From the UHGV virus genome UHGV-1455077: DNA of 64,000 nt; one strand, given 5' to 3'. The number at the start of each line of letters is the position of its first letter. Positions within the stretch are counted from its first letter, which is position 1. The position numbers were made by a program, and so were the translations under genes. The stretch is from a virus. The notes under the pieces were generated by a model. That model was not told the DNA's origin. It worked only from the letters and a program-made list of their open reading frames with translations, and did not search any database. This document shows positions 40,924-60,484 of the stretch, piece by piece.

Positions 40924-42836
40924 TGACACAAGTTAATCCAAAAGTAGAATATGATAATTTAGAAGGATTTCCATCATATGATGGAAATGAAATTCATTAT
41001 CTTAAAAGTACAACTGATTTAGTTAATTTAAAAGATGTTTCTGTGAATGAAATTAAAACAGAAATGGATTTTAATAATCCTCAAAAATTAAATTATAATT
41101 ATATTCAAGAAGCTCCTGCAAATATTTTACAAGATATTAAAAAAGAAATTTTTACATTTCCTGTAATGACTGCCAACGAAACAACTGTTGGAGATATTAC
41201 TTATATTGCTTCTTCATCATCACAATATAATGATACTTATGCCGCTTGGAAAGCATTTACAGGTACATTTGCGGCAGAAACTGATGCTTGGCAATCAGTT
41301 GCATTACCAACTGTTGATGCTCCACAATGGCTTAAAATATATTGTGGTGGGCAAGATATTTTTCCATTATATTGGACATTTGGAAATTGTGGTTCTTATA
41401 CACGCTCAATGAAAAATTTTGTTATTCAAGGTTCTAATAACGATACTGAATGGACTGATTTAGTAACTGATATTAATTATTCAAATATAGCTAATGATAC
41501 ATTTTTTGTTTATTCAACTATTAAAAATCAATCATTTAAATATTTTAGAACACTTATTACCACAGGAAATGCAACTGATTTGGTAAAAATTGGTAATTGG
41601 TCAATGATTGGTTATTTAAATTCATCTACTATTACAATTCCATCAAACATTGATGAAAATAATCCATTAAAATATGTAGATGATAATGGTACTGTTCATA
41701 CAATTACAACTCCATTATCTATTAATGTCCAGCCAAATAGTTATACTAATATTGTACCTCATATGAATAGTAATGAAGAACAAGGTTGGACATTAACAAG
41801 TAATAGAATGAATGGATATGCATATGCTCAACCATATTTTATGACAAGTGGAATTAACACGCAAGGTTTTCATTGTAATACCGCTATTGCTACAAATAAC
41901 ATAAGCTATGTAAGTTATGCTAAAGATACAACATTTACTCCAGTAGCATTTAAAATTAAAAATAGATGGGATTATGGAAGTGGTATTGCTTATGAAGCAA
42001 TTATTGGTTTTAATGTTAAAAATGAAAAATCAAATGTTTTATATAGAACTAATCAACATTATCGTTTAGCCCAAAATACTTGGCAAGAATTTAAATTACA
42101 AAGAATTGAACCTTGTACTTCATTTATTATTGAAGCATTTAATAGTGATAATACAAATTCATATCATAATTATGGCAGAGGATTTGAAATTTTAGTAGAA
42201 GATAATAATGGTACAGATTTCTTAGAATGGAGTACATCATATATCTTTTTAAATACTACAACTAATCAATTGATTGAAGAAAAAGGTAAATTTACTATTT
42301 CGCAAATAATTCCAGCAACTCCTAAAAATAATGACCTTTGGTTAAGTATTTTAGATAAGAGCAGAGTTTATAAATTTGATGGTACAAATTGGAATTTAAC
42401 AACATATATACCCATTGCTATGATTGTATTTAATTATTATCAAATAGCAAAGGTATATAACTATCCAATAAATGCTAACTGGTATGATTTAACAACTAAA
42501 TCTATGTGGAAATCTGCGGAATTAATGCCTGCAACAAATGCGTGGATAATGTATCCTCATAATCAACAAATGCAAAATATTAAAAATAAATTTTATGACG
42601 TAATATTAATTAATAAAGTTGCTGAATTTGGCTATGAACCAGGTGATATTGCTGAAGGAATTTCTATGGATTATGTTGCAACAGATAATCGTTATCCAAT
42701 GATTTATTTAGATGATGAATTAATTGGTATTCATACTGGAACTTTAAATACAGGTATTTCAATACTACAAAAAAATAGTTCAACTGAACAATATATTACA
42801 TTAGCTAATTGGCGTTTAATATTTAGAATATGGTAA
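40923..42836 (+). CDS. receptor-binding/tail protein paralogue (discoidin-like domain plus shared C-terminal module)
   Basis: YAAWKAFTGTF...WLKIYCGG...FVIQGSNNDTEW; C-terminal FGYEPGDIAEG...NTGISILQK...NWRLIFRIW; ATGA overlap with upstream. Confidence 0.6.
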   Translation: MTQVNPKVEYDNLEGFPSYDGNEIHYLKSTTDLVNLKDVSVNEIKTEMDFNNPQKLNYNYIQEAPANILQDIKKEIFTFPVMTANETTVGDITYIASSSSQYNDTYAAWKAFTGTFAAETDAWQSVALPTVDAPQWLKIYCGGQDIFPLYWTFGNCGSYTRSMKNFVIQGSNNDTEWTDLVTDINYSNIANDTFFVYSTIKNQSFKYFRTLITTGNATDLVKIGNWSMIGYLNSSTITIPSNIDENNPLKYVDDNGTVHTITTPLSINVQPNSYTNIVPHMNSNEEQGWTLTSNRMNGYAYAQPYFMTSGINTQGFHCNTAIATNNISYVSYAKDTTFTPVAFKIKNRWDYGSGIAYEAIIGFNVKNEKSNVLYRTNQHYRLAQNTWQEFKLQRIEPCTSFIIEAFNSDNTNSYHNYGRGFEILVEDNNGTDFLEWSTSYIFLNTTTNQLIEEKGKFTISQIIPATPKNNDLWLSILDKSRVYKFDGTNWNLTTYIPIAMIVFNYYQIAKVYNYPINANWYDLTTKSMWKSAELMPATNAWIMYPHNQQMQNIKNKFYDVILINKVAEFGYEPGDIAEGISMDYVATDNRYPMIYLDDELIGIHTGTLNTGISILQKNSSTEQYITLANWRLIFRIW

Positions 42837-44584: not shown

Positions 44585-45316
44585 ATGTCTACAATTTATG
44601 ATATAGCTGGTACAACATCTGATGCTTTTAATCTTAATGGTAAAGTAACTTTCTTACAAGGTGATGAAGCTCCAGAAGTATATCAAGGTATTAATGGAGA
44701 TGTTTATTTTAGAACAAATGGTTTAATTTATTCTAAACAAAATAATACTTGGTTAAACTTATCATCTGCATCTTTACCTGATGCCGCTTCTGGTGCAGGA
44801 AAATTTATTATGTCAAATGGACAGAACTATGAATTTGCTGAAATACCTGTTCAAGATATTGCATCTAAAACAGAAGATAATGTATGGTCAGGTAATAATA
44901 CATTTACAGGTACAATAAATGGTATTTCAATGGGTTCATATTGGGGTGACTTAGCAGAATATTATGAATCTGATAATGAATATCCTAAAGGAACTTTAGT
45001 TAAATTTGGTGGTGAAAAAGAAATTACTATTGCAGATGATACTGTTAATGCTGTTATTACATCTAATCCAGGTTTTATATTAAATATGGGAATGAATAAA
45101 AAAACTCGTCAAGCAATTGCATTAGTTGGTCGTGTTCCTGTAAGAGTTATTGGTAAATGTAATAAATTTGATTATTTAACATTATCTGATGTTCCTGGTA
45201 TTGCAAGAGCATTGGAACAAAATGAATTTCCAATGAATGTTATTGCAAGAGCGTTAGAAAATAAAGATGAAATTAAAGAAGATTTAGTTCTTTGTGTGGT
45301 CAAACTTGACTTATAA
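44585..45316 (+). CDS. tail-fibre-like protein
   Basis: Sits in the structural block; Gly/Asn-rich beta-rich composition; followed by a terminator. Confidence 0.4.
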   Translation: MSTIYDIAGTTSDAFNLNGKVTFLQGDEAPEVYQGINGDVYFRTNGLIYSKQNNTWLNLSSASLPDAASGAGKFIMSNGQNYEFAEIPVQDIASKTEDNVWSGNNTFTGTINGISMGSYWGDLAEYYESDNEYPKGTLVKFGGEKEITIADDTVNAVITSNPGFILNMGMNKKTRQAIALVGRVPVRVIGKCNKFDYLTLSDVPGIARALEQNEFPMNVIARALENKDEIKEDLVLCVVKLDL

Positions 45317-45395: not shown

Positions 45396-46118
45396 ATGGA
45401 GAAAATAATGGTAGAGTTTTCATACGATTTAATAAAAACAAATAAAGTAGAAAGAAATGATGAAAATGGTAAAAAAATTATTGAATTATTACCACAAACA
45501 GATATTACATCAGACGAATTATTAGAATTATTAAATTATGTTTATAATTTAGAAAATAATGAAGAATTTAAAGATACAATTCTTTTACAATTAAAAGGCT
45601 TAAACAAAAATCTTTTAATTGATGCCTTTAAATATTCATTATCAAGAGAAGATTTAAAAGACCCAATAATGATTTTAAATATTATTAATCTTATTAAAAT
45701 TTATAATAATTTAAATGATAATTTCTTTCAAGATGAAAACATTTATATTTCTTCAAAAGCTGATTTATTAGATATTAAGAAAAATTTGAAACCTGAATTA
45801 AAAGAATTTGTAAAGAAAGTTAGTATTTACTTTTTATCAGTTATTAAATCATATAATAAAGTAACTTATACTTCACTTGATACTTTTGAAATATTACCTA
45901 ATATTTACAGAACTATCTTTTTATCATCAGACTTTTTAACATTATCAGGTATTTTTTCAGTTTCAGAACCATTTAATACAGAAGAATGTGTAACAATCAA
46001 AGATTCTTTTACTTATGTGTCGGCATTTTTAACAAAGAATTTAATTGGATTAAATTTTATGGATTCATTCTTCAAAAATTTAGAACAAAATAAACCTATT
46101 GAAAATAAGGAAGAATAA
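45396..46118 (+). CDS. hypothetical protein
   Basis: 240-aa ORF; ATGA overlap with the next gene. Confidence 0.45.
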   Translation: MEKIMVEFSYDLIKTNKVERNDENGKKIIELLPQTDITSDELLELLNYVYNLENNEEFKDTILLQLKGLNKNLLIDAFKYSLSREDLKDPIMILNIINLIKIYNNLNDNFFQDENIYISSKADLLDIKKNLKPELKEFVKKVSIYFLSVIKSYNKVTYTSLDTFEILPNIYRTIFLSSDFLTLSGIFSVSEPFNTEECVTIKDSFTYVSAFLTKNLIGLNFMDSFFKNLEQNKPIENKEE

Positions 46119-46765
46119 TGGCTGTACAAAAAGGTGAATTAATTGTATATCAGGATTTAATTGATTTTGTATTAACAAATATTAAATCACATTGTTCAAA
46201 TATTGATGCATTTGCAAGTAATGTTCCTGTATCTTTAAGAAATGGGTCAAGTTATGTATTAGCATCTACACCTGGTGGTAATGGAACTGTTACAGCCACA
46301 GGTACAGTTAATGATGGTTTATTAGTTACCGTTTCAAGTGCAACTGTTGAACAACAATTAAATGATTTTTTAGTTGCTAGAGGTATTAAAAATAAACCTG
46401 ATAGAGTTGTAGCATTTAAAGATATTATGAATTTTTACAATAATATTGCTTCATTTTTAGCTACAAAATTAATGTTTGTAAGTAATAGTTTTGGTAGTGG
46501 TACTTTTATTTTTTATAATAGTGCAAATACATCATTTCCTTCTGTTAATTTAGATATTACAAGTATTGATTTTACTAATCCAGAAGTTAAAACAAGTATA
46601 ACTGATTTAATGAACGCAATTAATAATGTTTCAAATACACATTATGCCGCTACAACTATTGTTTATACTTGTTCATCAAGTAGTTCATCTAGTTGTTCTT
46701 CATCAAGTAGTTCATCTAGTTGTTCTTCATCAAGTTCAATGTTTATTGCATATATGGATATATAA
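46118..46765 (+). CDS. protein A of a paralogous pair; C-terminal Cys/Ser-only tail (CSSSSSSSCSSSSSSSSCSSSSS); candidate substrate of the downstream radical SAM cassette
   Basis: Shares MA(V/I)Q..., NFL, F..TKL.F..S and YNSANTS/YTANTS patterns with the next ORF. The tail is encoded by a 27-nt tandem repeat. Confidence 0.55.
   Translation: MAVQKGELIVYQDLIDFVLTNIKSHCSNIDAFASNVPVSLRNGSSYVLASTPGGNGTVTATGTVNDGLLVTVSSATVEQQLNDFLVARGIKNKPDRVVAFKDIMNFYNNIASFLATKLMFVSNSFGSGTFIFYNSANTSFPSVNLDITSIDFTNPEVKTSITDLMNAINNVSNTHYAATTIVYTCSSSSSSSCSSSSSSSSCSSSSSMFIAYMDI
46670..46738 (+). repeat. 27-nt tandem repeat (~2.5 copies) encoding the CS-rich tail
   Basis: tgttcatcaagtagttcatctagt / tgttcttcatcaagtagttcatctagt / tgttcttcatcaagttca. 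Confidence 0.8.
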
Positions 46766-47316
46766 TGGCTATACAAAATATTACATATAATGAAATTGTT
46801 GAAGCAGTTAAAAATTATGCAAAAAGTAACTGTATGAATATTGCTAATTTTGGAGCTATTCCAGCGGCATTTAAAGCAGGATATTCTTTATCAGGAGATA
46901 TTAGTTCATCGGGAAATAGATATACATCTAAATATGTTGTTACAATTACTAGAGCTGTTTCGCAAGTAGCTTCAAGTGTAGTTGATACAGATATGAATAA
47001 TTTTTTAACAAGCATAAATGTTGCTAATAAATTAAATGACAATATTCCTGCAAGTGAATTTATTAATTTTATAAATGATATGGTAAGTTTTTGTTCAACA
47101 AAATTATGTTTTGCTACCAGTCAATATGATGGCAATAGATATTTAATTTATTATACAGCAAATACTTCTTATTCATCAGTAGTTTCTATTACAACAAATA
47201 ATCAATTAAAACTTATTGAAGCAAGTGATGTTAATTCAATCTTAAATATGCTTTTTAATGTTGTCAAACAAAATATTAGAAATGTACCTTGTACATATAA
47301 TATTGCATTATCTTAA
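46765..47316 (+). CDS. protein B of the paralogous pair (no CS tail); start at TAATG overlap (MAIQNITYNE)
   Basis: The track start at 46720 is an in-frame upstream Met inside protein A. Homology to A begins at MAIQ. Confidence 0.5.
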   Translation: MAIQNITYNEIVEAVKNYAKSNCMNIANFGAIPAAFKAGYSLSGDISSSGNRYTSKYVVTITRAVSQVASSVVDTDMNNFLTSINVANKLNDNIPASEFINFINDMVSFCSTKLCFATSQYDGNRYLIYYTANTSYSSVVSITTNNQLKLIEASDVNSILNMLFNVVKQNIRNVPCTYNIALS

Positions 47317-47363
47317 TTTTTTTAATATAATTATTTCCATAAACTATTTTAAGGATATTTTTT

Positions 47364-48230
47364 ATGAATTGTAAGCCTGTATACGAATTTTTATTATGGG
47401 ATAATTGTAATAATAATTGTAAATTCTGTTGGCAACGAGAAAATCCAAGAATTTTTAATAAACAACAACGAGAAAAAATATTAAATAATGTAATTAAATT
47501 TATTGAAAGTAGTAAATTTAAAAAAGGCAGTCATATTCTTATCGTTGGTGGAGAAATATTTGATAAACCTTCTGATTTTGAAATGCTCGATGCTTTCTTT
47601 TGTAAAATTCTTGAATTTATGATTGCTGGAGTAATTGATTTATTATATATTAATACAAATCTTATCTATAAAGATTTAACTGGTATTGTCCGCTTATTAC
47701 AAAGAATAAAAATATTAAATTTATTTGATAAATTAAGATTTACAACTTCTTATGATACAGAAGGAAGATTCAAATCATTAGAAGATAAAGATTTAATGTT
47801 ATCTAATTTAAAACTTCTTACAGGTATATATGATAAACTACAAACAGTTACAAATGTAATTTTAACTAAACCAACTTGCCAAGCAATTATTAATAAAGAA
47901 TTTAGTATTAAAGACTTTATGAATAATTTTAATTGCTGGGTTAATCTTATTCCGTATATTGTATTAAATAATGATTTGACGGCTAACAGAGAAGAAATAT
48001 TTAATGCTTTGCAATTTGTTGATGAAGAAAATAATGGATATTTACAAAAATACATTACTAATTTGGATTTAGCTCAAGATAAATTATTATATATGTTTAA
48101 AGATGGTAGATTTCAATTTTGTAGTTGTGAAAATGCAGATTGTGGACATTCAATCAATTTTAAAAAATATTCTAATACTAATGAATGTTTTATATGTGAT
48201 TTAAAGGAATTATTTAATGGAAAACTTTAA
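47364..48230 (+). CDS. radical SAM enzyme, paralogue 1
   Basis: N-terminal CNNNCKFC (CxxxCxxC); GGE motif ILIVGGEIF; C-terminal CGHS...CFICD cysteine motif. Confidence 0.8.
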   Translation: MNCKPVYEFLLWDNCNNNCKFCWQRENPRIFNKQQREKILNNVIKFIESSKFKKGSHILIVGGEIFDKPSDFEMLDAFFCKILEFMIAGVIDLLYINTNLIYKDLTGIVRLLQRIKILNLFDKLRFTTSYDTEGRFKSLEDKDLMLSNLKLLTGIYDKLQTVTNVILTKPTCQAIINKEFSIKDFMNNFNCWVNLIPYIVLNNDLTANREEIFNALQFVDEENNGYLQKYITNLDLAQDKLLYMFKDGRFQFCSCENADCGHSINFKKYSNTNECFICDLKELFNGKL

Positions 48231-49137
48231 GAATAGAAATCGTTTTATTCAATATGAATTATGGAAAGATTGTAGTTTAGGTTGCAAATTTTGTTTTAAT
48301 AAAAAACAAAAAGATGCCGATAAAATAGAATCATTGTTATTTGTTATTGATAAATTAGATAATCCAGAAGTTTTAGATTATAATGAAGTTGGTTTTATTG
48401 GCGGAGAATTTTTTAATGGTGAAATAGCTAAACCAAAAGTAAAACAATTATTTTATAATTTGTTTAAAAAACTTTCAACAATGCATTTTGAAAAAATATA
48501 TATAACAGGTGCATTAATGTATGATATGAATACTTATTTAATTCCTTTTTTAGATTATTTAAAAGAAATTAAATTATTAGATAAAACTTTATTCTGTACA
48601 TCCTATGATTTAAAATATCGTTTTTATACAAAAGAAAGAGAAGATTTATGGAAAAATAATATGTTATTACTTCATAAATTATATCCTGAATTAAAATTAC
48701 ATACAGAAACTGTTATTACACAATATTTTATAGATGCTGTATTAAATGATGAATTTAGTATAACTGATTTTTGTAACACTTATCATACAAGATTAGATTA
48801 TATTGAACCTACATCAGGATTATATTATAAAGATAAGCAAGAATGTATAAAAGATATTCCAGATTTTTTTCCTACAAAAGATAGTTTTATTGATTTTATG
48901 ATGAAAACAGGTGTAGAATCAAATGAAATTGATTTAAAAACATTTTTATCTATGGAAATACGTTCTAATAAATTATATTATTTAGATGAAGGCATTAGAT
49001 GTGTATCAGCCGATAGACGAGAAAATGACGGAATGATAGTTCCAAAAAATAATTCAGTTAAGTATGAAATAGGTTTTTCAGATTCAGATGATAATATGCC
49101 AGAATTAGTTAGAGATTTTTGTTTAACAGTAGGATAA
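48217..49137 (+). CDS. radical SAM enzyme, paralogue 2
   Basis: CSLGCKFC; VGFIGGEFF; lacks the C-terminal CGH motif. Confidence 0.75.
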   Translation: MENFKNRNRFIQYELWKDCSLGCKFCFNKKQKDADKIESLLFVIDKLDNPEVLDYNEVGFIGGEFFNGEIAKPKVKQLFYNLFKKLSTMHFEKIYITGALMYDMNTYLIPFLDYLKEIKLLDKTLFCTSYDLKYRFYTKEREDLWKNNMLLLHKLYPELKLHTETVITQYFIDAVLNDEFSITDFCNTYHTRLDYIEPTSGLYYKDKQECIKDIPDFFPTKDSFIDFMMKTGVESNEIDLKTFLSMEIRSNKLYYLDEGIRCVSADRRENDGMIVPKNNSVKYEIGFSDSDDNMPELVRDFCLTVG

Positions 49138-49141
49138 CATT

Positions 49142-50131
49142 ATGGATTTAATAGATTGGTGGATAAACTTAGAACCTTTGTCAGTAGAAGAAAAAAAATT
49201 ATTAACTTCTTCAAGAAATGATGAATTTATAGATAAAATTTTTACAGTATCATTGACATCAGAATTTATTAAAAGATTACCAAATTGTAATTTATCTAAT
49301 GAATATCAAGTACGTGTAGATAATTGTGCAACGAATTTAATTCAAAGTTTATTTAATACATATATTGATGATGATACTCTTGTTATATATACCGAAAATG
49401 AGCATTATAAAATTAAAGGAATTCTTGATGCATTTAAAAATAAATTGGTATTAAGTTATAATGATATACTTAAATTAAATATGTCTAAAATAGCTTCTCA
49501 ATTATCTAAATTCAAAAAAGTTTTTGTTTATATTATTGGAACTCAATTATCAAGTGGAGAAATAACTTCTCAATATTTTTTCATAAAATTAAAAGAATTA
49601 TTAAATACTTATAAATGTCAATATAAATTAGTTTTAGATGATGTTCACGGAATGTTTTTTGTCCCTCGTGATTATAGCATATTTGATTATATTATTGGAA
49701 CAACACACGCCCTCATTCCATCATATCATATGGGGATTTTAATTGGTAAAGAAAATATGGATAAATTTGGAAGAATACAATATCAATGGGAAGATGAATA
49801 TCTTAGAGCATTAGATGTATTATTAAAAAGAAAAGAAAAAATTTATCAATTTAAATATATAATGGAACAAAGTTTAGCTAAAATTATTTCTGAAGGTAAA
49901 TGTCATTTATTAACTCAAACTGCCCCACATTTGTTTACTTTAAAAACCGACCAATTACAATATAATCAAGAATTTAAAGATGAATTGGATAAGTATGGAA
50001 TAAGGTTAGAAGGGGTTAATGAAGAATTAAAATATATTTTATGTAGAGTATCACAATTTATTATTAATCCTAATATATTAAAAGAAGGTATTGAAACATT
50101 AAATATTGTATTAAACTATATGTATGAATAA
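49142..50131 (+). CDS. hypothetical protein embedded in the radical SAM cassette
   Basis: 329-aa ORF with no recognisable motif. Confidence 0.45.
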   Translation: MDLIDWWINLEPLSVEEKKLLTSSRNDEFIDKIFTVSLTSEFIKRLPNCNLSNEYQVRVDNCATNLIQSLFNTYIDDDTLVIYTENEHYKIKGILDAFKNKLVLSYNDILKLNMSKIASQLSKFKKVFVYIIGTQLSSGEITSQYFFIKLKELLNTYKCQYKLVLDDVHGMFFVPRDYSIFDYIIGTTHALIPSYHMGILIGKENMDKFGRIQYQWEDEYLRALDVLLKRKEKIYQFKYIMEQSLAKIISEGKCHLLTQTAPHLFTLKTDQLQYNQEFKDELDKYGIRLEGVNEELKYILCRVSQFIINPNILKEGIETLNIVLNYMYE

Positions 50132-50142
50132 GGAAAAAAATT

Positions 50143-51069
50143 ATGGGTAATATGGTTCAATTTGGAGTTTGGTCTAATTGTTGTAATGCGTGTGATTTTT
50201 GTTTACGTGAAGAAAGAATTCCATATAGCAAAGAAAAACAATTATATTATTTAGATATGATTAAAAAGAATATTGAATATATTGATTGGAAAGATAAATT
50301 TTCATATGGAATTTCATTACTTGGCGGAGAATTATATTACATTACTGATAAAGATTTACAAAAATCATTTCTTGAATTAATTGATGTTATTATTGAAAAA
50401 GTATTAAAAGTTTCTACTAATCCAGAATGTAAGTATTCAACTGTTACAAATGGATTATACGACCCTGCATTTTTATATCAAGTTATTGATAAAATTGTTA
50501 ATGAAGTAGGATTAAAAGCAATTGATGTTAATTTTTCATATGATTTAAAATACAGATTTAAATCAGAAGAAGACCGTTTAAAATGTTTAAAAAATATTAA
50601 TGATTTTCATTCAAGATATGATTATAATGTTGGTGTGCAAATGATTATGACACAATATGTTATTAATGAATGGAAAGCTGGACGATTTGATGTCAATAAA
50701 TTTATGGAAGAAGAAATTCCAGGAAATTATTTAACGTTTTTATATCCACATCCTGTAAGAACAGGTAAAAAATTAGATGATTTTAATTTTAACAGAAATG
50801 ATTTTTTAGATTTTATTCAATATTTAAAAGATGAATGTTATAATGTTTATTTGTCATTTTTACATTCAACAAAAAATTCAGGAACTTTTAAATATACAGG
50901 CTTACAAAATCGTATTCATCCATCAGTTAATGCCCAGCCTGTATTATCAGATGGTAAAGAAATTATAAATCAAGAATGTGGTCATTCTATCATATATAAA
51001 TGTTATAGCGATTGTGATGATTGTGTCTTATGCGATTTAAAAAATTTTGATGAGGAAGTATATCTATGA
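50143..51069 (+). CDS. radical SAM enzyme, paralogue 3
   Basis: CCNACDFC; SLLGGELYY; C-terminal ECGHSIIYKCYSDCDDCVLCD. Confidence 0.8.
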   Translation: MGNMVQFGVWSNCCNACDFCLREERIPYSKEKQLYYLDMIKKNIEYIDWKDKFSYGISLLGGELYYITDKDLQKSFLELIDVIIEKVLKVSTNPECKYSTVTNGLYDPAFLYQVIDKIVNEVGLKAIDVNFSYDLKYRFKSEEDRLKCLKNINDFHSRYDYNVGVQMIMTQYVINEWKAGRFDVNKFMEEEIPGNYLTFLYPHPVRTGKKLDDFNFNRNDFLDFIQYLKDECYNVYLSFLHSTKNSGTFKYTGLQNRIHPSVNAQPVLSDGKEIINQECGHSIIYKCYSDCDDCVLCDLKNFDEEVYL

Positions 51070-52052
51070 AAAAACAAATGCAATTTGAATTATGGGACGA
51101 ATGTAATTCTAAATGTACTTTTTGTCATTTATGTAATAAAAATGGAAATACTCCAAATAATATAAAATTAGAAATGCTTCAAGATACATTAGATAAAATT
51201 TCTGATTTATCAATTTATTCTGAATATAATACAATTGGTTTTATTGGTGGGGAATTTTTTCAAGGACAACTTAATACGCCTGAAATTAAATCTAAATTTA
51301 TGGAATTGATGGATAAGGCTTGTTGGTTATTAAATAATGATTATATAGATAATGTTTGGATTAATGCTACATTAACAATTGGAAATCAAGATGATTTATA
51401 TGCCGTTTTAAAGCGTTTTGAGGGGCATAAAGGAAATTTATGGATACTTACCTCATTTGATACATTAGGACGCTTCCACACCCAAAAAATGAAAGATAAT
51501 TGGGATTATCATATGAAGAATATTCATAATTTATATCCAGAAATTAAATTTAATATTACTACTATTTTATCAGGTGATTTTATTGAACGCTATTTAAATG
51601 ATGAAATAAATTTTGAGCAATTTATGCAAGAATATAATGCTTCATTATTTTTTAAAGTTCCTGCATTACAAAAAGAATATTATCATACTAATAAAGAAAT
51701 GAATGATAAAATTGGTTATTTTTTTCCTACACGGGATTTATTTTTAGAATTTTTATCAAAATTTAGACAAACAGAACATCCTGATTTATGGAATAAATTA
51801 TTTAATATTGAATATCGTGCCGATACATTATATTGTAAAGAAAATGGCGATGATATAGAAATAACTCGTTCTAAAGATAATAATTATATGGAAACAATTA
51901 TAGATACAACCATTAATGAACAAATGGAAAGAGTAAAAGAAAAGCAAATGGATTATATTATGGATTGCGGGCATTTAAGTACATATAATTCTTATATAGA
52001 TGAAGATGGTTGTGCATTATGTGATAAGTTAATGTTTGAAGAACTAATATAA
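51066..52052 (+). CDS. radical SAM enzyme, paralogue 4
   Basis: CNSKCTFC; IGFIGGEFF; FFQGQLNTPEIKSKFMEL; C-terminal DCGHLSTYNSYIDEDGCALCD. Confidence 0.8.
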   Translation: MKKQMQFELWDECNSKCTFCHLCNKNGNTPNNIKLEMLQDTLDKISDLSIYSEYNTIGFIGGEFFQGQLNTPEIKSKFMELMDKACWLLNNDYIDNVWINATLTIGNQDDLYAVLKRFEGHKGNLWILTSFDTLGRFHTQKMKDNWDYHMKNIHNLYPEIKFNITTILSGDFIERYLNDEINFEQFMQEYNASLFFKVPALQKEYYHTNKEMNDKIGYFFPTRDLFLEFLSKFRQTEHPDLWNKLFNIEYRADTLYCKENGDDIEITRSKDNNYMETIIDTTINEQMERVKEKQMDYIMDCGHLSTYNSYIDEDGCALCDKLMFEELI

Positions 52053-52072
52053 ATATTTCAAAAGGTAAAATA

Positions 52073-53023
52073 ATGAGTAAACAGATGCAATTTGAGTTAT
52101 GGCAAGAATGCAATTCTAAATGTAAATTTTGTTATTTAGGAAAAGAAAATTGTCATACACCAGATGAATTAAAATTACAATCTTTACAAAATGCAATTGA
52201 TAAAATTTCTGATTTATCAATTTATTCTGAATATGATACTTTATCATATCTGGGTGGAGAATTTTTTCAAGGACAACTTAATACGCCCGAAATTAAATCT
52301 AAATTTATGGAATTGATGGAAAAAACCGCTTGGTTATATGATAATGATTATATTAAACACGTATGGATTTATGCTACATTAACTATCGGCGACCAACAAG
52401 ATTTATATGATACTTTGAAATTATTTAATAAAAAAGATGAATTATGGATTTTAACATCATATGATACAATTGGTAGATTTCATACTAAAAAGATGTTTGA
52501 TAATTGGGATTATCATATGAAGAATATTCATAATTTATATCCAGAAATTAAATTTAACATTACTACTATTTTATCAGAAGACTGTATAGACAAGTATTTA
52601 AATGATGAATTGTCATTTAAAGATATGATGGAAGAATATCATTGTTCATTCTTTTTTAAGCAATGCGGCAATGGTTCTTATACAAAAGAAGAAATGAATA
52701 CAATTATTCCTCACTTCTTTCCACCTAGAGATAAATTTATTGACTTCTTACAAAAATTCCGCAATGAAGAAAATGATGAAATGTGGAATAAATTATTTAA
52801 TATTCATTATAGAGCAGATAGTTTGTATAGGAATTTCAATGATAAAAATCATCAAATGGAATTAAATGTTCGTCATAAAGATTCATTAAATGAAATTGAA
52901 AATGATAATAAAGATGAAATGGAAACAAATGAATGTGGTCATTTAAAAGTTTATGCGGCATATATTGATTGTGATGAGTGTGTACTTTGTGATAAATTAA
53001 TGATAGAAGAATTTTTAAAATAA
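52073..53023 (+). CDS. radical SAM enzyme, paralogue 5 (very recent duplicate of 4)
   Basis: CNSKCKFC; LSYLGGEFF; DNA stretches >50 bp identical to paralogue 4; C-terminal ECGHLKVYAAYIDCDECVLCD. Confidence 0.8.
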   Translation: MSKQMQFELWQECNSKCKFCYLGKENCHTPDELKLQSLQNAIDKISDLSIYSEYDTLSYLGGEFFQGQLNTPEIKSKFMELMEKTAWLYDNDYIKHVWIYATLTIGDQQDLYDTLKLFNKKDELWILTSYDTIGRFHTKKMFDNWDYHMKNIHNLYPEIKFNITTILSEDCIDKYLNDELSFKDMMEEYHCSFFFKQCGNGSYTKEEMNTIIPHFFPPRDKFIDFLQKFRNEENDEMWNKLFNIHYRADSLYRNFNDKNHQMELNVRHKDSLNEIENDNKDEMETNECGHLKVYAAYIDCDECVLCDKLMIEEFLK

Positions 53024-53033
53024 GGAAATATAA

Positions 53034-53510
53034 ATGATTACAATTGAAAATAATGATAATGATATTATGATTGAAAATGATGTCAATCAACCATATGTAA
53101 AAAAAATTATATTAAATAAAAGTATTACTATTAAAGCACAAACTAATACTTCTTTTGATATTAATACTGTCTTTAAATTTACTGATAATAATGATTTTGC
53201 ATTTGTTGAAGGTGTTATTGTTGATGCAAAAGATTATTATGTAGTTGGAGAAGTATATAGTTTAGACCGCCAAAATAATAAATTATCTTTATTAATTGGT
53301 AATAATTCAAATGTATCTTATACAATTCCAGCAGGAACTCATATTGCTAATATCTATACATTAGCAAAAAATTTTAGTGGTAATGTTATATATAATAATG
53401 GAAATATTGCAGTAATAGATTATAATAACTATTATAAAGTTAGTGATACAACTTTAACTGAATTTCCAGATGGAAAAAAAGCTATAACAATTAATTTAGA
53501 TAAAGAATAA
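53034..53510 (+). CDS. hypothetical protein embedded in the radical SAM cassette
   Basis: 158-aa ORF; ATGA overlap with the next gene. Confidence 0.45.
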   Translation: MITIENNDNDIMIENDVNQPYVKKIILNKSITIKAQTNTSFDINTVFKFTDNNDFAFVEGVIVDAKDYYVVGEVYSLDRQNNKLSLLIGNNSNVSYTIPAGTHIANIYTLAKNFSGNVIYNNGNIAVIDYNNYYKVSDTTLTEFPDGKKAITINLDKE

Positions 53511-54466
53511 TGAGTTTACAAATACAATATGAATTATGGAGAGAGTGTAATTGTAAATGTACATATTGCACTCTTGGAATAGATAATTGCTTAACAAGTA
53601 ATGAATTAAAACTTCAATCAATGCAAACAGCAATTGATGAAATGAAACAATTTAAATCAAATGAACATCAAACAGTTGGTTTTATTGGTGGAGAGTTTTT
53701 TCAAGGACAACTTAATACACCTGAAATTAAATCTAAATTTATGGAATTAATTACAGAAGCAAATAATTTATTAAATAATAATATTGTAAAAGATTTATGG
53801 CTTAATGCATCATTATTAATCGGTAATCAAGATGATTTATATGAAGCAATAAATTTAATTAATGATAAAACAAAACTATGGGTTTTAACATCATATGATA
53901 CAATTGGTAGATTTCACACATCTAAAATGTTAGATACTTGGAAATATCATATGAATAAACTTCATAATGATTATCCAGAAGTTAAATTAAACACTACAAG
54001 TATTTTAACGGGTGATTTTATTGAAAAATATTTAAATGATGAATTTGATATTGAAGATTTTAAAGCTAAATATCATACCAATTTATTTTTAAAAACAACT
54101 GTTAAACCTGGTCATTTAAGCCATTTAACAAAACAAGAAATTAATGATAAGATAGGTAATTTTTTTCCTACACAAGAAAAATTTCAAGAATTTTTATTTA
54201 CATATTATTCACGTGAAGGAGAAGATGAATATCATAAATTGTTTAGTAATGATTTAAGAGCCGATGAGGTTCGTAAAAATTTCAATGATGAAAATAAAAG
54301 AAATATTAAATTTATAAGAGATAAAAACACTCTTGAAGAAACAATTGATTGTATTGATGAACATATTGATAATTTATCTTGTGGTCATTCATCTATCTAT
54401 CAATCTTATGTTGATTCAGATGATTGTTCAATATGTGATAAACAACAAATTTTGGATATAATTTAA
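53510..54466 (+). CDS. radical SAM enzyme, paralogue 6
   Basis: CNCKCTYC; VGFIGGEFF; C-terminal SCGHSSIYQSYVDSDDCSICD. Confidence 0.8.
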   Translation: MSLQIQYELWRECNCKCTYCTLGIDNCLTSNELKLQSMQTAIDEMKQFKSNEHQTVGFIGGEFFQGQLNTPEIKSKFMELITEANNLLNNNIVKDLWLNASLLIGNQDDLYEAINLINDKTKLWVLTSYDTIGRFHTSKMLDTWKYHMNKLHNDYPEVKLNTTSILTGDFIEKYLNDEFDIEDFKAKYHTNLFLKTTVKPGHLSHLTKQEINDKIGNFFPTQEKFQEFLFTYYSREGEDEYHKLFSNDLRADEVRKNFNDENKRNIKFIRDKNTLEETIDCIDEHIDNLSCGHSSIYQSYVDSDDCSICDKQQILDII

Positions 54467-55101
54467 TGCCTGATTTTGAAAAAAATAATTATTATAAAAT
54501 TATAGATATAAAAACAAATGCTATTATTTGTGCAGGGAAGATTGCATTTATTAAACAAACTAAAGATATGCCTATTCTAATTAGTTTTGATAATAAATTC
54601 TTCTTCAATTCCGAAGGAACTTCAAAATATAAAGTTGTTAAATCTGATACAGAGGTTGATGTTCCTTTATTAAGAAATATTATATTAGAATCTTATAAAA
54701 TATGCTTATATGAAGATTATTTTAATTATCCTGATTATGATATATTTAGAGAATATGATATTAATGAATTAGATGAGCCAGTTATTAAATTAGTTACTAT
54801 ATTAAATAAATTTGATGATATTGAAACCACAGGAAGTTGTTGCGGACACGGTGATAATTATTTATGGGTTGATATTATGTTTCATTCGTTATCATCTATT
54901 AATTTAATTATTGATTTATTAAATGATGATAAATGGAATAATAAATTTATTTTAAGTAATTATTATACTAATAAAAATAAATCTAATTATTCTGTTATGC
55001 TACATTTACGTTCATTTACTAAAGGTGAAGAAGCATATAAAGATGCTAGTTTATTAGCAGATGATTTACAAGAAATTTATGAATTACTTTATGGATTATA
55101 A
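54466..55101 (+). CDS. hypothetical protein following the radical SAM cassette (contains a TTGSCCGHGD motif)
   Basis: 211-aa ORF with ATGxxTAA coupling to radical SAM 6. Confidence 0.45.
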   Translation: MPDFEKNNYYKIIDIKTNAIICAGKIAFIKQTKDMPILISFDNKFFFNSEGTSKYKVVKSDTEVDVPLLRNIILESYKICLYEDYFNYPDYDIFREYDINELDEPVIKLVTILNKFDDIETTGSCCGHGDNYLWVDIMFHSLSSINLIIDLLNDDKWNNKFILSNYYTNKNKSNYSVMLHLRSFTKGEEAYKDASLLADDLQEIYELLYGL

Positions 55102-55144: not shown

Positions 55145-55176
55145 AAAAAAGAGAGCTTTTTAAAGCTCTCTTTAAC
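55145..55176. terminator. bidirectional terminator between convergent genes
   Basis: aaaaaagagagctttttaaagctctctttaac. Confidence 0.75.
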
Positions 55177-56648: not shown

Positions 56649-57053
56649 TTGATGACTGATATAAGTAAAATAGATATGGAACGAATTAATGGATTACTTG
56701 ATAAACTTGAAGAAGTAACTGATAAACTTAATTCAATGAAATATGTTGTGGAAACTGGTGGAGATTCAACGCAATGGTATAGAAAATGGAATGATGGTTT
56801 TATAGAACAATGGGGGAATATAATTTTTTCACAATCTGCTGGAAGTTATACTAATCAAACAACAACATTACCAATAGCATTTTCTTCAACTGCATATTAT
56901 ATAACACTTATTGCAACAAATTCAAATAATCAACAAAGTCACACCTGTGGTATTTTAGTTAAAAATAAAAATTCATTTAATTGGTCATCATCATATTGGT
57001 GGGCAAGAGATGCATATGTTTCAAGCTTTAATTGGTATGCGTGTGGATATTAA
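56649..57053 (+). CDS. small fibre/whisker-like protein (paralogue of 4590 and 37183)
   Basis: MMTDISKIDMERINGLLDKLEE coiled coil, WYRKWNDGFIEQWG, C-terminal ACGY. Confidence 0.6.
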   Translation: MMTDISKIDMERINGLLDKLEEVTDKLNSMKYVVETGGDSTQWYRKWNDGFIEQWGNIIFSQSAGSYTNQTTTLPIAFSSTAYYITLIATNSNNQQSHTCGILVKNKNSFNWSSSYWWARDAYVSSFNWYACGY

Positions 57054-57082
57054 AAAAGAGAGGTTTTAAAACCTCTCTTTAT
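57052..57082. terminator. bidirectional terminator
   Basis: aaaaagagaggttttaaaacctctctttatt. Confidence 0.75.
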
Positions 57083-57378: not shown

Positions 57379-58643
57379 TATATTTCCCCTTTTGCATAGA
57401 TAAATTTAAAACTAATTAAATTTGTAAATTCAGTATCAAACAATATTTGACAAGTTTCACCTTTTAAAACAGGTATAATTGTTCTTAAATATTTGTCTGC
57501 ACTTCTTGATGCATAACAATAACCATAATTTAAACCACTTCTTATAATAGCTATATCAACCCAGTTTGGCCCTTGCCCATCTATACTGAAATAACCATTT
57601 GCTGGAGCAATATAAGTTGCTCCTGATGCTCCTAAAGTTAATGAAACATATTTACTACCTGGCATAACTTGTTGTGTAATAAATGTAGTATCATTTTTAT
57701 CAAATAATTGATATGCATTATTAAAACTAAATGTAGTAATTTTTCCAGAAGCATCAGTTAAAAATGTTCCAATTGGACATACTACCCAATCATTTAACCA
57801 TCCATTTGAAATATCATTTAAAACATATTTCCATTTATTTTCATTTGGAGAATACCAAATAGAATATGTAGATAATGTTGGTGCATTATTTTGATAATAA
57901 ACTTTTGATGTTTCTAAAAACTCTAATTGTCTTTCATCATCTGAAACTCTAGCAAATAATGTATATGATGTATTTGGAGCTAAAGATATTGTCCAATAAG
58001 TTAAAGTAGGTAAAATTTTTACAATATTATTTTGACTTCCATCATCATTGTTACCATTTGGAAATATATAAGTATTTCCACCATTTTTAATTATTGTATT
58101 TCCAATAAAACCAAATCCGTTAAATACTTGGTCAATAGATGTCCAAGATGTTGTAGTAGATGTTCCAATAGCAAATGGAAAAGAACATTCTTGCCAACCA
58201 TCAGTTGTATCCAAATAACATTTTTTATCAGTTGTATTAAAATAAATTTTAAATGTTGCAGTTGATTCGGGTAATTCAGATACAGTTTCACCTGTTAAAA
58301 ATCCAGTTAATAATACATCATAATCTTTAGAAAGTGCTAACATAACTTGACCATCATAATTTGCATTTGCACTTGTAATATCTGTTGTGGTAGTTTTCAT
58401 AATACCATTACCATTATAAACTTTACTACCTGCTTTAAGTGTAATTGTACCATTATTTAATTCAAGTTTAATATCTTGAGGTATTTTTGTTAAACAGTTT
58501 GTAATTTGACCATAAGTCCAATATGGTTTAGAACCATTATTACTTAACATCATTCCTGATGTTTCATCATTCATTAATGGCATTTGAACACCATTTAACA
58601 TAATTTTTTGACTAAGTTCATTGTTACCTAAATATAATGTCAT
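57378..58643 (-). CDS. tail fibre / receptor-binding protein paralogue
   Basis: Shared motifs with 55172..56551. Confidence 0.6.
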   Translation of the reverse strand: MTLYLGNNELSQKIMLNGVQMPLMNDETSGMMLSNNGSKPYWTYGQITNCLTKIPQDIKLELNNGTITLKAGSKVYNGNGIMKTTTTDITSANANYDGQVMLALSKDYDVLLTGFLTGETVSELPESTATFKIYFNTTDKKCYLDTTDGWQECSFPFAIGTSTTTSWTSIDQVFNGFGFIGNTIIKNGGNTYIFPNGNNDDGSQNNIVKILPTLTYWTISLAPNTSYTLFARVSDDERQLEFLETSKVYYQNNAPTLSTYSIWYSPNENKWKYVLNDISNGWLNDWVVCPIGTFLTDASGKITTFSFNNAYQLFDKNDTTFITQQVMPGSKYVSLTLGASGATYIAPANGYFSIDGQGPNWVDIAIIRSGLNYGYCYASRSADKYLRTIIPVLKGETCQILFDTEFTNLISFKFIYAKGEI

Positions 58644-60397
58644 TATTCACCCCAATCTACTATTGTTGCCGCAATATATGTTTTTAAAATTTTGTACATT
58701 TCCATCCAGTATGTTGTATTTGTTAATTCTGTTCCCGCTGGAATATTATCTTGTAATCCTAAATAACCATATTGAGCTGTACTATCTTCATATGTTACAA
58801 AATCACTAGCAATATATGCTTTACTTGAATCCCAATCACCTTTAGGATTAATACCTTTACCACTTGTAATATCTACTGGAGTTGGGTTTTCTAAACCACC
58901 GTCATTTGTCCAAGATAATGTATAACCATTTTCCATAGGAGTTAATTCTGGAGTAAATGTTATACCTTCTGTACCAATATTAAGATTGTAAAAATATTTT
59001 AAATCTACTAATGTTCCAGCAGTTAATCCAGAAACTAATGTAACTGTTTTTTTATCTGTTCCTAATGTATAAGCCGCAGAAGTTAATTCTGTATTACCAA
59101 CATTTACAGACAATACTGATTTATCATAAATTTCGTGAGAAGCTACAAAAGTTGTTTGTCCTTCTGTGGCTGTAAATGATTCAACAATTCTTTGTGCATA
59201 ATTAGTATAGATAGAAATTGTTTCAGGATTATCTAAATTTTTATTATTTGTAAATGAAATTGTTGCTTCGTGTGCATCTTGTGTTGTATGTGGTGTATAT
59301 GTAACACCATCAGAAATAACAACGTCCGTTGGATTAGGCAATCCAGCATCATTTGTCCAAGATAATGTTGTATCCAAACCAACTTTAGTTTGAGTTGGAG
59401 TATAGGTTGCACCATCTTTTATAATAACAGTATTTGGATTTTCCAATTCTCCATCATTTGTCCAAGATAATGTTGTTTCTGTTCCTGTTTTAGATTGTGA
59501 AGGAATAAATGTAACACCATCATAGATATGAGAATCTGCTGGGTTTTCTAAACCACCGTCATTTGTCCAAGATAATGTTGTATCTCTATCAACTTTATTA
59601 ATATGAGGAGTATAAGTTGCACCTACTTGAATCTCTAAATTATTAAACCAAGATAATTGAACTCTTGTTCCTATTGGAACAGCATTTTTTAAAACAACGG
59701 TATCTAAAGTTTCATTTAAATCCCATTCAGAATTTAAAATAACTGAATTTTCAATATTAACAGTAATTAAATCTTTTTTAAGAACTTTTTCACCTAAAGG
59801 AAAATCAGTTGTACTTTCTAAAGTTGTTGTAAATGATTTTGAAACAATTTGAGATACGTTTGTTGGAATAATCATATTACCATATACAATTACTTCAATA
59901 TTATTACCTGGTTCAACTGGCTCATTAAAAGTAAGAGTTTTACCATCTTCAGCTAATGTATAGTTATTTGATTGTAATAAAAGGTTATTAATATTAACTG
60001 ATAAAGATTCTTTGTTAGCAACTGCATCATCTAATACAACACTTGTAATTTCATTTACAGGGTCATAGAAAAATTTAGATGATTTAAAATAACCTGCTAA
60101 TAATTGCCATTTATTAAAATCAAATGGTTCTTGAGCTGTATGTTCCATTCTACATTGAAATAAACTATTATTATATGAAACAATATCGCCAACACGGTAA
60201 GTAATACCAGGTGTCCAAATTGTTGAAGTATTATCACCACCTGTACCACCAATATCGTGAGCAACTTCATCAGGTGTTAAATATTGAGCAAAACCATCAT
60301 TATTAATTTTTACATAAGTATTAGGATTATCCTTAAAAGGTGATTGAAATTCATCAATCATACTTGTTGTAATTTTTATATTTGGTGTTCCAACCAT
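58643..60397 (-). CDS. tail fibre protein with four tandem ~30-aa repeats (start moved to MVGTPNIKITTSM)
   Basis: Repeats ...TYTP..TK...DTTLSWTNDGGLENP.... The track N-terminal extension to 60565 runs through the palindromic operator and intergenic promoter. Confidence 0.6.
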   Translation of the reverse strand: MVGTPNIKITTSMIDEFQSPFKDNPNTYVKINNDGFAQYLTPDEVAHDIGGTGGDNTSTIWTPGITYRVGDIVSYNNSLFQCRMEHTAQEPFDFNKWQLLAGYFKSSKFFYDPVNEITSVVLDDAVANKESLSVNINNLLLQSNNYTLAEDGKTLTFNEPVEPGNNIEVIVYGNMIIPTNVSQIVSKSFTTTLESTTDFPLGEKVLKKDLITVNIENSVILNSEWDLNETLDTVVLKNAVPIGTRVQLSWFNNLEIQVGATYTPHINKVDRDTTLSWTNDGGLENPADSHIYDGVTFIPSQSKTGTETTLSWTNDGELENPNTVIIKDGATYTPTQTKVGLDTTLSWTNDAGLPNPTDVVISDGVTYTPHTTQDAHEATISFTNNKNLDNPETISIYTNYAQRIVESFTATEGQTTFVASHEIYDKSVLSVNVGNTELTSAAYTLGTDKKTVTLVSGLTAGTLVDLKYFYNLNIGTEGITFTPELTPMENGYTLSWTNDGGLENPTPVDITSGKGINPKGDWDSSKAYIASDFVTYEDSTAQYGYLGLQDNIPAGTELTNTTYWMEMYKILKTYIAATIVDWGE

Positions 60398-60457
60398 TTC
60401 AATTTTCCTTATATATTCATATAAGATATTTATAAAAAAATTTAGGAATAAAAAAGT

Positions 60458-60484
60458 TTGTGGATATTTATTAAATATCCACAA
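60458..60484. promoter_or_regulatory. 27-bp perfect palindrome, copy 2
   Basis: TTGTGGATATTTATTAAATATCCACAA inside the 36-bp repeat aaagtttgtggatatttattaaatatccacaaaggg. Confidence 0.6.

Follow-up and report, generated by a model that had tools for sequence, protein, structure and literature searches.

A radical SAM gene cassette and its candidate Ser/Cys-tailed substrate in jumbo phages of the gut and rumen

What do six radical S-adenosylmethionine (SAM) enzymes do in a phage, encoded among its tail-fibre genes and behind a pair of proteins, one of which carries a run of nothing but serine and cysteine? The question is raised by an operon located at positions 45396-55101 of UHGV virus genome UHGV-1455077, of which a stretch of 64,000 nucleotides, called here the window, was analysed. 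The operon (~9.7 kb) comprises 12 genes in the order Z, A, B, RS1, RS2, U1, RS3, RS4, RS5, U2, RS6, U3. The reading favoured here, tentatively, is that the radical SAM enzymes modify the tail of protein A and that the operon is a protein-maturation module of gut and rumen jumbo phages. The open reading frames (ORFs) named in an original prediction, made from the sequence alone, are all present where it had placed them. The cassette it had delimited at 46118-55101 is real, although the conserved unit starts one gene earlier, with Z. The genes and the parts of protein A (lengths in amino acids, aa) are the following.

45396..46118, plus strand: Z, a 240-aa protein, its stop codon sharing 1 nt with the start of A
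46118..46765, plus strand: A, 215 aa, a globular alpha/beta domain followed by a Cys/Ser-only tract and a conserved C-terminal motif; putative substrate
46670..46738, plus strand: Cys/Ser-only tract of A, CSSSSSSSCSSSSSSSSCSSSSS, residues 185-207, 23 residues, read from the sequence
46739..46765, plus strand: C-terminal motif of A, MFIAYMDI and the stop codon
46765..47316, plus strand: B, 183 aa, paralogous to A and ending at the point where the tract of A begins; its start overlaps the stop of A (TAATG)
47364..48230, plus strand: RS1, radical SAM enzyme of clade RS1, with a C-terminal CGH-x12-CxxCD
48217..49137, plus strand: RS2, radical SAM enzyme of clade RS2, the sole clade without CGH...CxxC
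49142..50131, plus strand: U1, a 329-aa core accessory protein with a weak class-V aminotransferase (NifS/IscS-like) assignment
50143..51069, plus strand: RS3, radical SAM enzyme of clade RS3, the most conserved clade; CGH...CxxC with extra Cys residues
51066..52052, plus strand: RS4, radical SAM enzyme of clade RS4/5/6
52073..53023, plus strand: RS5, radical SAM enzyme of clade RS4/5/6
53034..53510, plus strand: U2, 158 aa, sporadic, usually found after an RS5-type gene
53510..54466, plus strand: RS6, radical SAM enzyme of clade RS4/5/6
54466..55101, plus strand: U3, 211 aa, with a weak TYW3-like N-terminal motif (TTGSCCGHG), outside the conserved core

Protein A is the candidate substrate. 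A and B are paralogous, as had been proposed from their TAATG overlap (BLASTP: 30% identity over 148 aa, E = 7e-17). A is made of a folded domain covering about residues 1-185, after which comes the tract, and the tail is disordered in an AlphaFold2 model with a predicted local distance difference test (pLDDT) score of 77.7. The Cys/Ser run had been taken for the end of the protein; in fact MFIAYMDI comes after it. No structural neighbour of A was found in the PDB and no match in Pfam, and tblastn of its globular domain against deposited phages returned none even at E <= 10. Its 69 database homologues, which go down to 25% identity, all retain the tail architecture. Pooled with the ORFs of fetched loci, they bring the A family to 112 sequences, whose tails are of 91 distinct kinds (85 in a first pass); in these tails the tract measures 9-37 residues (median 21) and contains Ser and Cys only.

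Outside the tract, the body of these proteins is 10% Thr. Both families of Ser codons are heavily represented in the tracts, with all six codons in use (AGT 231, TCT 212, TCA 194, AGC 80, TCG 51, TCC 34). Thr, Gly, Ala and Asn are one nucleotide change away from Ser codons, yet they are excluded, which argues for selection on the side chain itself (-CH2-OH or -CH2-SH), beyond flexibility. Each tail contains from 0 to 8 Cys, unevenly spread: the first tract residue is Cys in 47% of cases, against 13-20% for positions -6 to -8 and 1-5% for the final five, and this positional bias hints at a separate role for Cys. The C-terminus follows the consensus x-F-I-A-Y-M-[DNKRE]-[IL] in the 85 distinct tails of the first pass, the protein ending 7-12 residues past the tract, and FIAYM-x-[IL] may serve for recognition, as a 'follower' element, or as a strand for docking. 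In several lineages (L025, L028, L030, L034, L035, L037 and L038), the second paralogue is also tailed.

The length of the tract is its variable property. In the window, a 27-bp unit repeated perfectly in tandem encodes the tract (2.4 copies, 100% match, 46672-46735, tandem repeat finder). Tract length differs between near-identical strains, with 18 Ser in L007 (L007:2920-3582) vs 29 in L008 (L008:2887-3582), and the tract of homologue P0124 has one 9-residue unit fewer. Replication slippage thus probably alters the length of the tract.

Two further observations concern A and B. Near its N-terminus, A carries LIVYQDL (46139-46159; family consensus I-T-Y-x-D-L), which resembles its own C-terminal FIAYMDI (46742-46762); the likeness may reflect a strand mimic for docking or head-to-tail association, or the coincidence of short motifs. 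Upstream of its ATG, the frame of B stays open for 45 nt (46720-46764) that run across the end of the tract and include a TTG at 46720. An A-B fusion would result from a frameshift in this segment, and no canonical slippery site was seen.

Such a tail could also be a mere tether. A and B would then be accessory subunits of the fibre or baseplate, with FIAYMDI docking into B, A or Z, an unmodified tract between, and the radical SAM enzymes acting elsewhere, for instance on fibre proteins or host molecules. The predicted disorder of the tail and the evolutionary lability of its length suit this explanation, as do the pure poly-Ser tails of some members, the tail-less paralogue B that could serve as a cap, the resemblance between FIAYMDI and LIVYQDL, and the Peptidase_G2 fibre gene that usually precedes Z. 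However, a plain linker is expected to accept Gly, Thr, Asn and Ala, none of which occurs in any of the 91 tails, and the positional bias of Cys suggests a chemical role. Moreover, the strict tracking of the tailed protein by the enzymes would be left unexplained, which makes the tether improbable.

This tracking was established on 38 related loci gathered by a search seeded with the radical SAM enzymes. A tail-bearing A-family ORF lies within 10 kb of the radical SAM genes in 35 of them, the three exceptions being truncated contigs or short loci. In the other direction, all seven IMG/VR matches to the DNA pattern encoding FIAYMDI and a stop lie beside Z-A-B-RS genes. Among divergent A homologues, P0188 (locus L065), the most distant one whose flanking DNA is long enough, is located inside a radical SAM cassette. 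A second, P0186 (L064), has only Z-like and A-family genes for neighbours, its contig being 7.4 kb long and breaking off shortly after them. Lineages whose enzymes share only 34-74% identity with those of the window repeat the gene order Z-A-B-RS1-RS2-...-RS3-RS5, U1 being present or not. Duplications are also shared: L021 carries two complete RS3-RS5-A-B-Z-RS2 sets, Z-A-B is doubled in L009 and L017, and L037 has four tailed paralogues. The tailed protein and four clades of radical SAM enzymes are thus bound by a near-obligate, two-way co-occurrence and by co-duplication. The search of metagenomes for such co-occurrence had been suggested in the original prediction, and its outcome is near-exceptionless both ways.

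Do the enzymes themselves look like a set with distinct tasks? The CxxxCxxC triad followed by GGE[FIL] is present in all six ORFs (~290-330 aa), as first described, with its last Cys at residues 20-26 and hence not always within the first 20 residues. In a 42-sequence alignment, C13, C17 and C20 (RS4 numbering) are invariant. By CxxxCxxC, the GGE SAM-binding motif and a partial TIM-barrel fold, these proteins are members of the radical SAM superfamily. Pfam PF04055 recognizes RS1 at 30.2 bits for a gathering cut-off of 29.5 and scores RS2-RS6 under threshold (14.5-24.4 bits), and RS1 matches PHROG 1802 at 3.7e-13. At the other end of the protein, five of the six carry the announced C-terminal motif, RS2 being the one without it. 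Its form is C-G-H-x12-C-x-[LI]-C-D, in which three Cys and one His, rather than four Cys, are invariant. In RS1 and RS3-RS6, the motif is placed after beta-hairpins and before a helix, and among the window enzymes only RS3 and RS5 have extra Cys in this region. C-G-H-x12-C-x2-C-D is kept throughout clades RS1, RS3 and RS4/5/6, with an RS3 copy of L021 as the sole exception in the tree set, and is always missing from clade RS2. The three-Cys-plus-His site may hold an auxiliary cluster or a metal (iron-sulfur, Fe-S, or zinc).

The six enzymes had been described as tandem paralogues, which suggested recent copies. A neighbour-joining tree of the window enzymes and of homologues from ten divergent loci instead resolves four clades, RS1, RS2, RS3 and RS4/5/6, each with at least one member from nearly every lineage; a fifth, SPASM-type clade is found in some relatives only. 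The cassette therefore consists of four old, distinct enzymes, of which the RS4/5/6 type has multiplied here. Indeed, RS4 is 62% identical to RS5 and 48% to RS6, whereas RS1, RS2 and RS3 share 19-29% identity with RS4, and RS2 to RS6 share 20-25% with RS1. Orthologues within clades are 34-74% identical across lineages (RS1 34-61%, RS3 44-74%). RS3 orthologues, found in all lineages, form their own clade, RS6 groups with the RS6-type gene of L018, and RS4 is missing from the close relative L014.

This conservation bears on a second suggestion of the original prediction, namely a diversifying accessory system in which tandem radical SAM enzymes and a repeat-encoded tail would vary a receptor-binding component. 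Variation does exist, in the length of the tract among near-identical strains, in the copy number of RS4/5/6 genes, with L014 devoid of RS4, and in the mosaic structure of the cassette among strains. The four clades are nevertheless conserved orthologues and not fast-diverging copies, family searches of the operon proteins returned no reverse transcriptase or invertase, and the tail motif and composition are strongly conserved, tract length being the sole hypervariable feature. A diversifying role is thus highly improbable.

The mosaic structure is seen in other strains. L012 is 77-89% identical to the window from A to U1 and 98-100% from RS3 to U3, and in L002 only RS3 and RS4 are at about 100%. 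Together with the absence of RS4 from L014, these mosaic identities point to recombination breakpoints within the operon. Close relatives also carry genes that the window does not have, namely a member of the ICEA family (PF05315) placed after the Peptidase_G2 gene and before Z, and a 242-aa ORF separating U1 from RS3 (extra genes at L001:3701-4321, L002:4398-5126 and L006:7334-8062); these are probably mobile insertions.

Gut and rumen metagenomes contain widely diverged jumbo-phage contigs (~200-290 kb) over which the radical SAM clades are conserved. RS4 has more than 500 homologues in metagenomes, and an exhaustive hidden Markov model search at E <= 1e-3 gathers 832 cluster representatives (50% identity) for the family. 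The carriers come from human, chicken, rabbit and buffalo gut and rumen samples. With this range of samples, the module is a common unknown in gut viromes. In deposited phages, tblastn of RS4 gave no match, and among the proteins tested only RS1 has distant relatives there (RSF1, RSL2 and FLC6, 28-30% identity). Host assignment by a scan of GTDB (L039-L052) was rejected because the taxa of the metagenome-assembled genomes are mutually inconsistent (Succinivibrionaceae, Muribaculaceae, Bacilli, Erysipelotrichaceae, Bacteroides, Melainabacteria, Senegalimassilia, Oribacterium) and several contigs measure ~245-283 kb; the contradiction indicates that the cassette contigs in GTDB are probably mis-binned jumbo-phage DNA.

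Fusion forms occur in the family. A P-loop NTPase is joined to an RS5-type domain in P0310 and P0312, and an N-terminal domain of ~300 aa with the motif ILLDDADF is joined to an RS5-type domain in P0334, P0344, P0347 and similar proteins. In P0415, P0421 and P0422, a MiaB/RimO methylthiotransferase bears a C-terminal RS2-type domain at the TRAM position. In P0317 (484 aa), an RS5 homologue, an insertion of ~140 residues splits the CxxxCxxC region between the last cluster Cys and the next Tyr; it has Hint/intein-like ends (C...VVHNC) and is intein-like by these ends only.

Which known enzymes do they resemble? Searches of Pfam, PHROGs, NCBIfam and PADLOC placed no component of the cassette in a characterised family. 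The AlphaFold2 model of RS4 (pLDDT 91.3) gives only weak Foldseek matches against the PDB, with a template modelling (TM) score of about 0.4, the best being the epimerase EpeE (E = 2e-5, TM 0.40). Its structural neighbours include the peptide and protein maturases anSME (14.4), SkfB (14.0) and ChlB (13.5), a comparison with such maturases by Foldseek having been proposed at the outset, and also BlsE (14.1), viperin (13.2), SuiB (12.9) and MoaA (12.8); anSME gives the longest alignment, 255 residues. The family is located in the SPASM/twitch/viperin/MoaA neighbourhood and is a member of none of these families. Resemblance to anSME is limited to the fold, no protein of the window matching TIGR03942. 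Models of the activase NrdG score 12-14 bits for cut-offs of 126-152, and no glycyl-radical enzyme turned up in general family searches of window ORFs, which covered part of the 64-kb ORF set. Designed pentatricopeptide repeat proteins, the top PDB profile matches of the radical SAM alignment, were discarded as a repeat artefact in which many segments of ~5 bits are summed.

At the sequence level, the only matches of the radical SAM enzymes in PDB, NCBIfam and PADLOC are viperins, and viperin is a nucleotide-modifying enzyme. This opens another explanation, in which the radical SAM enzymes, U1 and U3 would make or modify a nucleotide, a cofactor or a tRNA base (compare viperin, MoaA, TYW1/TYW3 and MiaB), and Z, A and B, as scaffold or fibre-associated proteins, would merely share the operon. 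Besides the viperin structures and the viperin or pVip models, it can call on the TYW3-like motif of U3, on the MiaB/MtaB-like methylthiotransferase of related phages, on the 21 tRNAs encoded by the phage, and on the radical SAM clusters of cultured jumbo phages, which adjoin dihydrofolate reductase (DHFR) and oxygenase genes. The viperin likeness is nevertheless narrow. Model NF038283 reaches 17.8-24.6 bits against a cut-off of 180 and over roughly residues 3-75, far from the full length of a viperin, and the PADLOC pVip matches are N-terminal only, except that of RS6, which reaches residue 163. The resemblance is mostly limited to the ~60-residue cluster-binding N-terminus. Furthermore, viperins are single genes acting on nucleoside triphosphates, whereas a four-clade cassette with a tailed protein is found here, and we know of no viperin with a C-terminal CGH...CxxC motif.

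The two other props of the nucleotide explanation are equally partial. U3 matches Pfam TYW3 (PF02676) at 18 bits for a cut-off of 27 (E = 0.002), over profile positions 19-48 of 211, with weak NCBIfam matches to Taw3 and PRK04235; U3 was therefore rejected as a TYW3 methyltransferase, the match being sub-threshold and covering part of the domain, and it is restricted to close relatives and L019, outside the core. A MiaB/RimO-family enzyme lies within the cassette of L009 (TIGR00089, E = 1e-49), and L007, L009 and L015 carry a separate radical SAM enzyme with a SPASM domain above cut-off. Neither enzyme is present in this window, the methylthiotransferases of the relatives score under equivalog cut-offs, and, where they are fused, the TRAM position is lost to RS2. 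The co-occurrence and co-duplication with a Ser/Cys-tailed protein also remain unexplained by a nucleotide pathway. Placement of all six enzymes in a known nucleotide or cofactor pathway would have spoken against the original idea, and did not emerge, viperin and TYW3 scores lying below their cut-offs. The nucleotide explanation is, on balance, unlikely.

The accessory proteins U1 and Z belong to the core. U1 has 146 homologues, all in the same uncultured-phage family, and probably adopts a class-V aminotransferase (NifS/IscS-like) fold in which the lysine binding pyridoxal phosphate (PLP) is replaced (SGHK to GT-x-HA). This assignment is weak. It relies on three motifs in register with the PLP-site motifs of IscS, namely DDDTLVIT..EH, VLDDVHG (DAVQE in some) and FDYxIGTxHAL, the Schiff-base position being Ala in the family (T187-x-H189-A190), and on matches of Pfam Aminotran_5 (PF00266) to two of 14 members (best E = 1.2e-5). 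Comparison with the NifS-like structure 1ecx gives E = 0.82, and PDB sequences searched with a profile yielded nothing. The hhalign probability against Escherichia coli IscS is 0.7%, although the motifs EH, D-x-V-Q/H and S/T-x-H fall in register. U1 was therefore rejected as a cysteine desulfurase, for want of the lysine and of a significant alignment, and motif register with the two Pfam matches is kept as a weak lead. Z-like ORFs stand beside A/B in most related loci, in two copies where A/B is doubled, and Z has no relatives in Pfam or PDB. U2, by contrast with these core genes sporadic, has homologues in L009, L016, L017 and L018 (26-32% identical) and no family match in Pfam or PHROGs.

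The likeness of U1 to cysteine desulfurases allows the Cys/Ser tail to be viewed, together with U1, as a sulfur or Fe-S carrier or scaffold supplying the phage radical SAM enzymes. The many cluster-dependent enzymes of the module and the enrichment of Cys at the start of the tract would agree with such a function. On the other hand, the catalytic PLP lysine is missing in all U1 members, whose assignment is weak in any case, and some tails are free of Cys. Known scaffolds such as IscU, SufBCD and NfuA are built differently, with fixed Cys triads in folded domains. A scaffold function thus appears very improbable.

Taken together, the co-occurrence and co-duplication, the Ser/Cys-only tract and a conserved motif placed after a tract of variable length are best fitted by an enzyme-substrate module, and the four conserved clades imply distinct steps. 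As in cassettes for ribosomally synthesized and post-translationally modified peptides (RiPPs), the candidate precursor gene adjoins the modifying enzymes and its core region is strongly biased in composition. The cassettes of relatives add peptide-type enzymes, either a SPASM radical SAM enzyme or MiaB/RimO, the latter sometimes fused to RS2 in replacement of the RNA-binding TRAM domain, and the best structural neighbours of RS4 include maturases. From these observations we infer a substrate role for A, a type of chemistry and a possible role in the virion.

Several points weigh against this. None of the six enzymes has the SPASM motif CX2CX5CX3C or a TIGR04085 match, no peptide-maturase model exceeds its threshold for them, and their sequence-level matches are the viperins discussed above. 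No RiPP recognition element (RRE, PqqD-like) was detected by Pfam or NCBIfam in the RS proteins, Z, U1, U2 or U3, although an RRE is not present in every maturase. Pfam-type family searches returned no protease or peptidase and no exporter or transporter domain in the operon. A, with 215 aa and a folded domain, differs from the usual short RiPP precursors (under ~110 aa). A poly-Ser tract could be a mere flexible linker, and six tails contain no Cys at all, which means that a Cys-dependent chemistry is not universal. Lastly, synteny does not tell a substrate from a partner or a scaffold. The enzyme-substrate idea of the original prediction hence keeps its genomic side, with 35 of 38 loci, co-duplication and Ser/Cys-only tails, and does not gain SPASM or RRE signatures.

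How would an enzyme-substrate module work? A, and in some lineages its paralogue too, would be the substrate, its folded N-terminal domain being the functional cargo and bearing the disordered C-terminal Ser/Cys tract as the modified core. The F-I-A-Y-M-x-[IL] heptapeptide would be read as the recognition element. Four types of radical SAM enzyme would act on the tail, RS1, RS3 and RS4/5/6 with the three-Cys-plus-His site and RS2 without it, their 5'-deoxyadenosyl radicals abstracting hydrogen from C-alpha or C-beta of Ser or Cys. U1, with its NifS-like fold devoid of the PLP lysine, and Z would be conserved helpers. The preferred guess for the chemistry is an anSME-like oxidation of Ser/Cys to C-alpha-formylglycine; Cys-to-backbone thioether links could be formed alternatively or in addition, and epimerisation is also possible. 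The mature protein would probably work with the neighbouring tail-fibre genes.

Comparison with known maturases shows where such a module would stand. With anSME and the SPASM/twitch maturases (SkfB, ChlB, SuiB, CteB), it has in common the radical SAM core, the clustering of the genes with a putative substrate, and the succession of core, beta-hairpin, Cys-rich C-terminal segment and helix. anSME accepts both Cys and Ser and converts both into formylglycine, in agreement with a tract limited to these two residues. Unlike the SPASM/twitch maturases, however, the RS enzymes have three Cys and one His in place of CX2CX5CX3C, and no RRE. The tail of A also differs from anSME substrates, as it has no C/S-x-P/A-x-R motif and no Pro/Ala-x-Arg context, presents an unbroken Ser/Cys run of 9-37 residues at the end of a protein of 200 aa, and is accompanied by four enzyme types instead of one.

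Radical SAM-dependent RiPP cassettes that place many modifications on one precursor (proteusins/polytheonamides; epimerases PoyD and EpeE/YydG) provide a second comparison, with several radical SAM genes beside a precursor and EpeE as the top Foldseek match of RS4. Proteusin precursors have a repetitive C-terminal core after a large N-terminal leader domain. The N-terminal domain of A is nevertheless unrelated to the nitrile-hydratase-like or Nif11 leaders (no Pfam match), and its recognition-like motif is C-terminal to the tract. Moreover, this cassette is phage-borne, next to tail-fibre genes, and contains no B12-binding radical SAM methyltransferase, protease or exporter. The MiaB/RimO methylthiotransferases placed in the cassette or fused to an RS2-type domain in related phages offer another parallel, absent from this window; RimO sets a precedent, as a radical SAM enzyme that methylthiolates a protein side chain.

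In cultured phages, the closest described analogue is the multi-radical-SAM cluster of Chiangmaivirus. These jumbo phages (Ralstonia RSF1 and RSL2; Burkholderia FLC6 and S13) carry several radical SAM genes in a row, four being annotated in RSF1, and one Chiangmaivirus radical SAM enzyme is the 28-30% identical relative of RS1. They also encode a 186-aa protein ending in CHSSCH(S/T)SCHGSRGRR (RSF1 ORF071, L054:5027-5587; RSL2 ORF068, L055:301-861; FLC6 gp72, L056:301-861), whose gene directly follows a radical SAM gene in RSF1. Homology between RSF1 ORF071 and A was considered and rejected, being undetectable (hhalign probability 0.5%). The Chiangmaivirus tail consists of a short C-H-x-S repeat and a basic terminus, whereas A has a Ser/Cys-only tract with FIAYM, and the Chiangmaivirus cluster includes cupin, 2-oxoglutarate oxygenase and DHFR genes and no Z-like or U1-like gene by BLASTP. 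In published papers, the Chiangmaivirus radical SAM genes appear only as accessory genes of unknown function (PMC11898562, PMC5468394). Full-text literature searches found no description of the present module, and the arrangement, which had been thought undescribed, is so in the deposited phages and in the literature searched. It would be a radical SAM maturase cassette with its substrate, in which the enzyme clades, the substrate design and the carrier would all be new.

If the radical SAM enzymes do modify the tail of A, they would represent a new class of radical SAM protein maturation, with four uncharacterised enzyme clades, a Ser/Cys homopolymer substrate with a C-terminal recognition motif, and a viral carrier. 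This would bring new enzymology to the RiPP and radical SAM field and extend the tailoring by phages of their own, possibly virion, proteins well beyond known cross-links and glycosylations. A bolder and speculative version, rather unlikely as it stands, is that phages build a chemically rewritten polymer on their own protein, new radical SAM types converting the run of 9-37 Ser/Cys into a modified chain. Such a chain could consist, for instance, of successive formylglycine aldehydes or of a ladder of thioethers, and the appendage would serve tail-fibre adhesion, cross-linking or receptor chemistry. Were this true, a phage structural protein would for the first time be seen to mature through several radical enzymes, and the radical SAM chemistry involved would be new. 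The compact size of the cassette and the analogous arrangement in cultured Ralstonia and Burkholderia jumbo phages make these ideas testable.

The layout of the operon fits a single unit and counts in favour of the enzyme-substrate reading. Overlaps of 1 nt occur at four junctions (Z/A, A/B, U2/RS6 and RS6/U3), RS3 and RS4 overlap by 4 nt and RS1 and RS2 by 14 nt, and the remaining intergenic gaps measure 4-47 nt. Translational coupling had been asserted for the enzyme genes; what holds is the close packing, with which coupling across the operon is consistent. A terminator scan found none between A/B and the enzyme genes, and in a promoter scan the frequency of promoter-like sites did not exceed that in shuffled sequence. 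The neighbours of the operon on both sides are tail-fibre-like genes, which bears out its earlier placement within a tail-fibre block. The flanking features are the following.

38254-42836: F5/8-type-C proteins
44585-45316: Peptidase_G2/IMC protein, which usually precedes Z in related loci
56649-57053: Gp53-like_C
58643-60565: CBM_5_12 protein
61025-62320: tail-fibre-assembly PHROG

The window has a GC content of ~25% and matches, at 99% identity, part of L001, a metagenomic contig of 289 kb, and megablast of the cassette against ~50,700 deposited phage genomes gave no nucleotide match. These results indicate that the window is part of an uncultured jumbo phage. Its 21 tRNA genes, all on the plus strand, form an array at 12535-28252 with small ORFs between them, including tRNA-Ile(tat), two tRNA-Met and two tRNA-Lys. 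GC content rises locally to 0.356 at 12-14 kb of the window. Finally, two near-identical 26-nt hairpins (AAAGAGAG-N10-CTCTCTTT) are found at 55148-55173 and 57055-57080, both at the ends of convergent or divergent fibre genes, and probably constitute a shared terminator motif.

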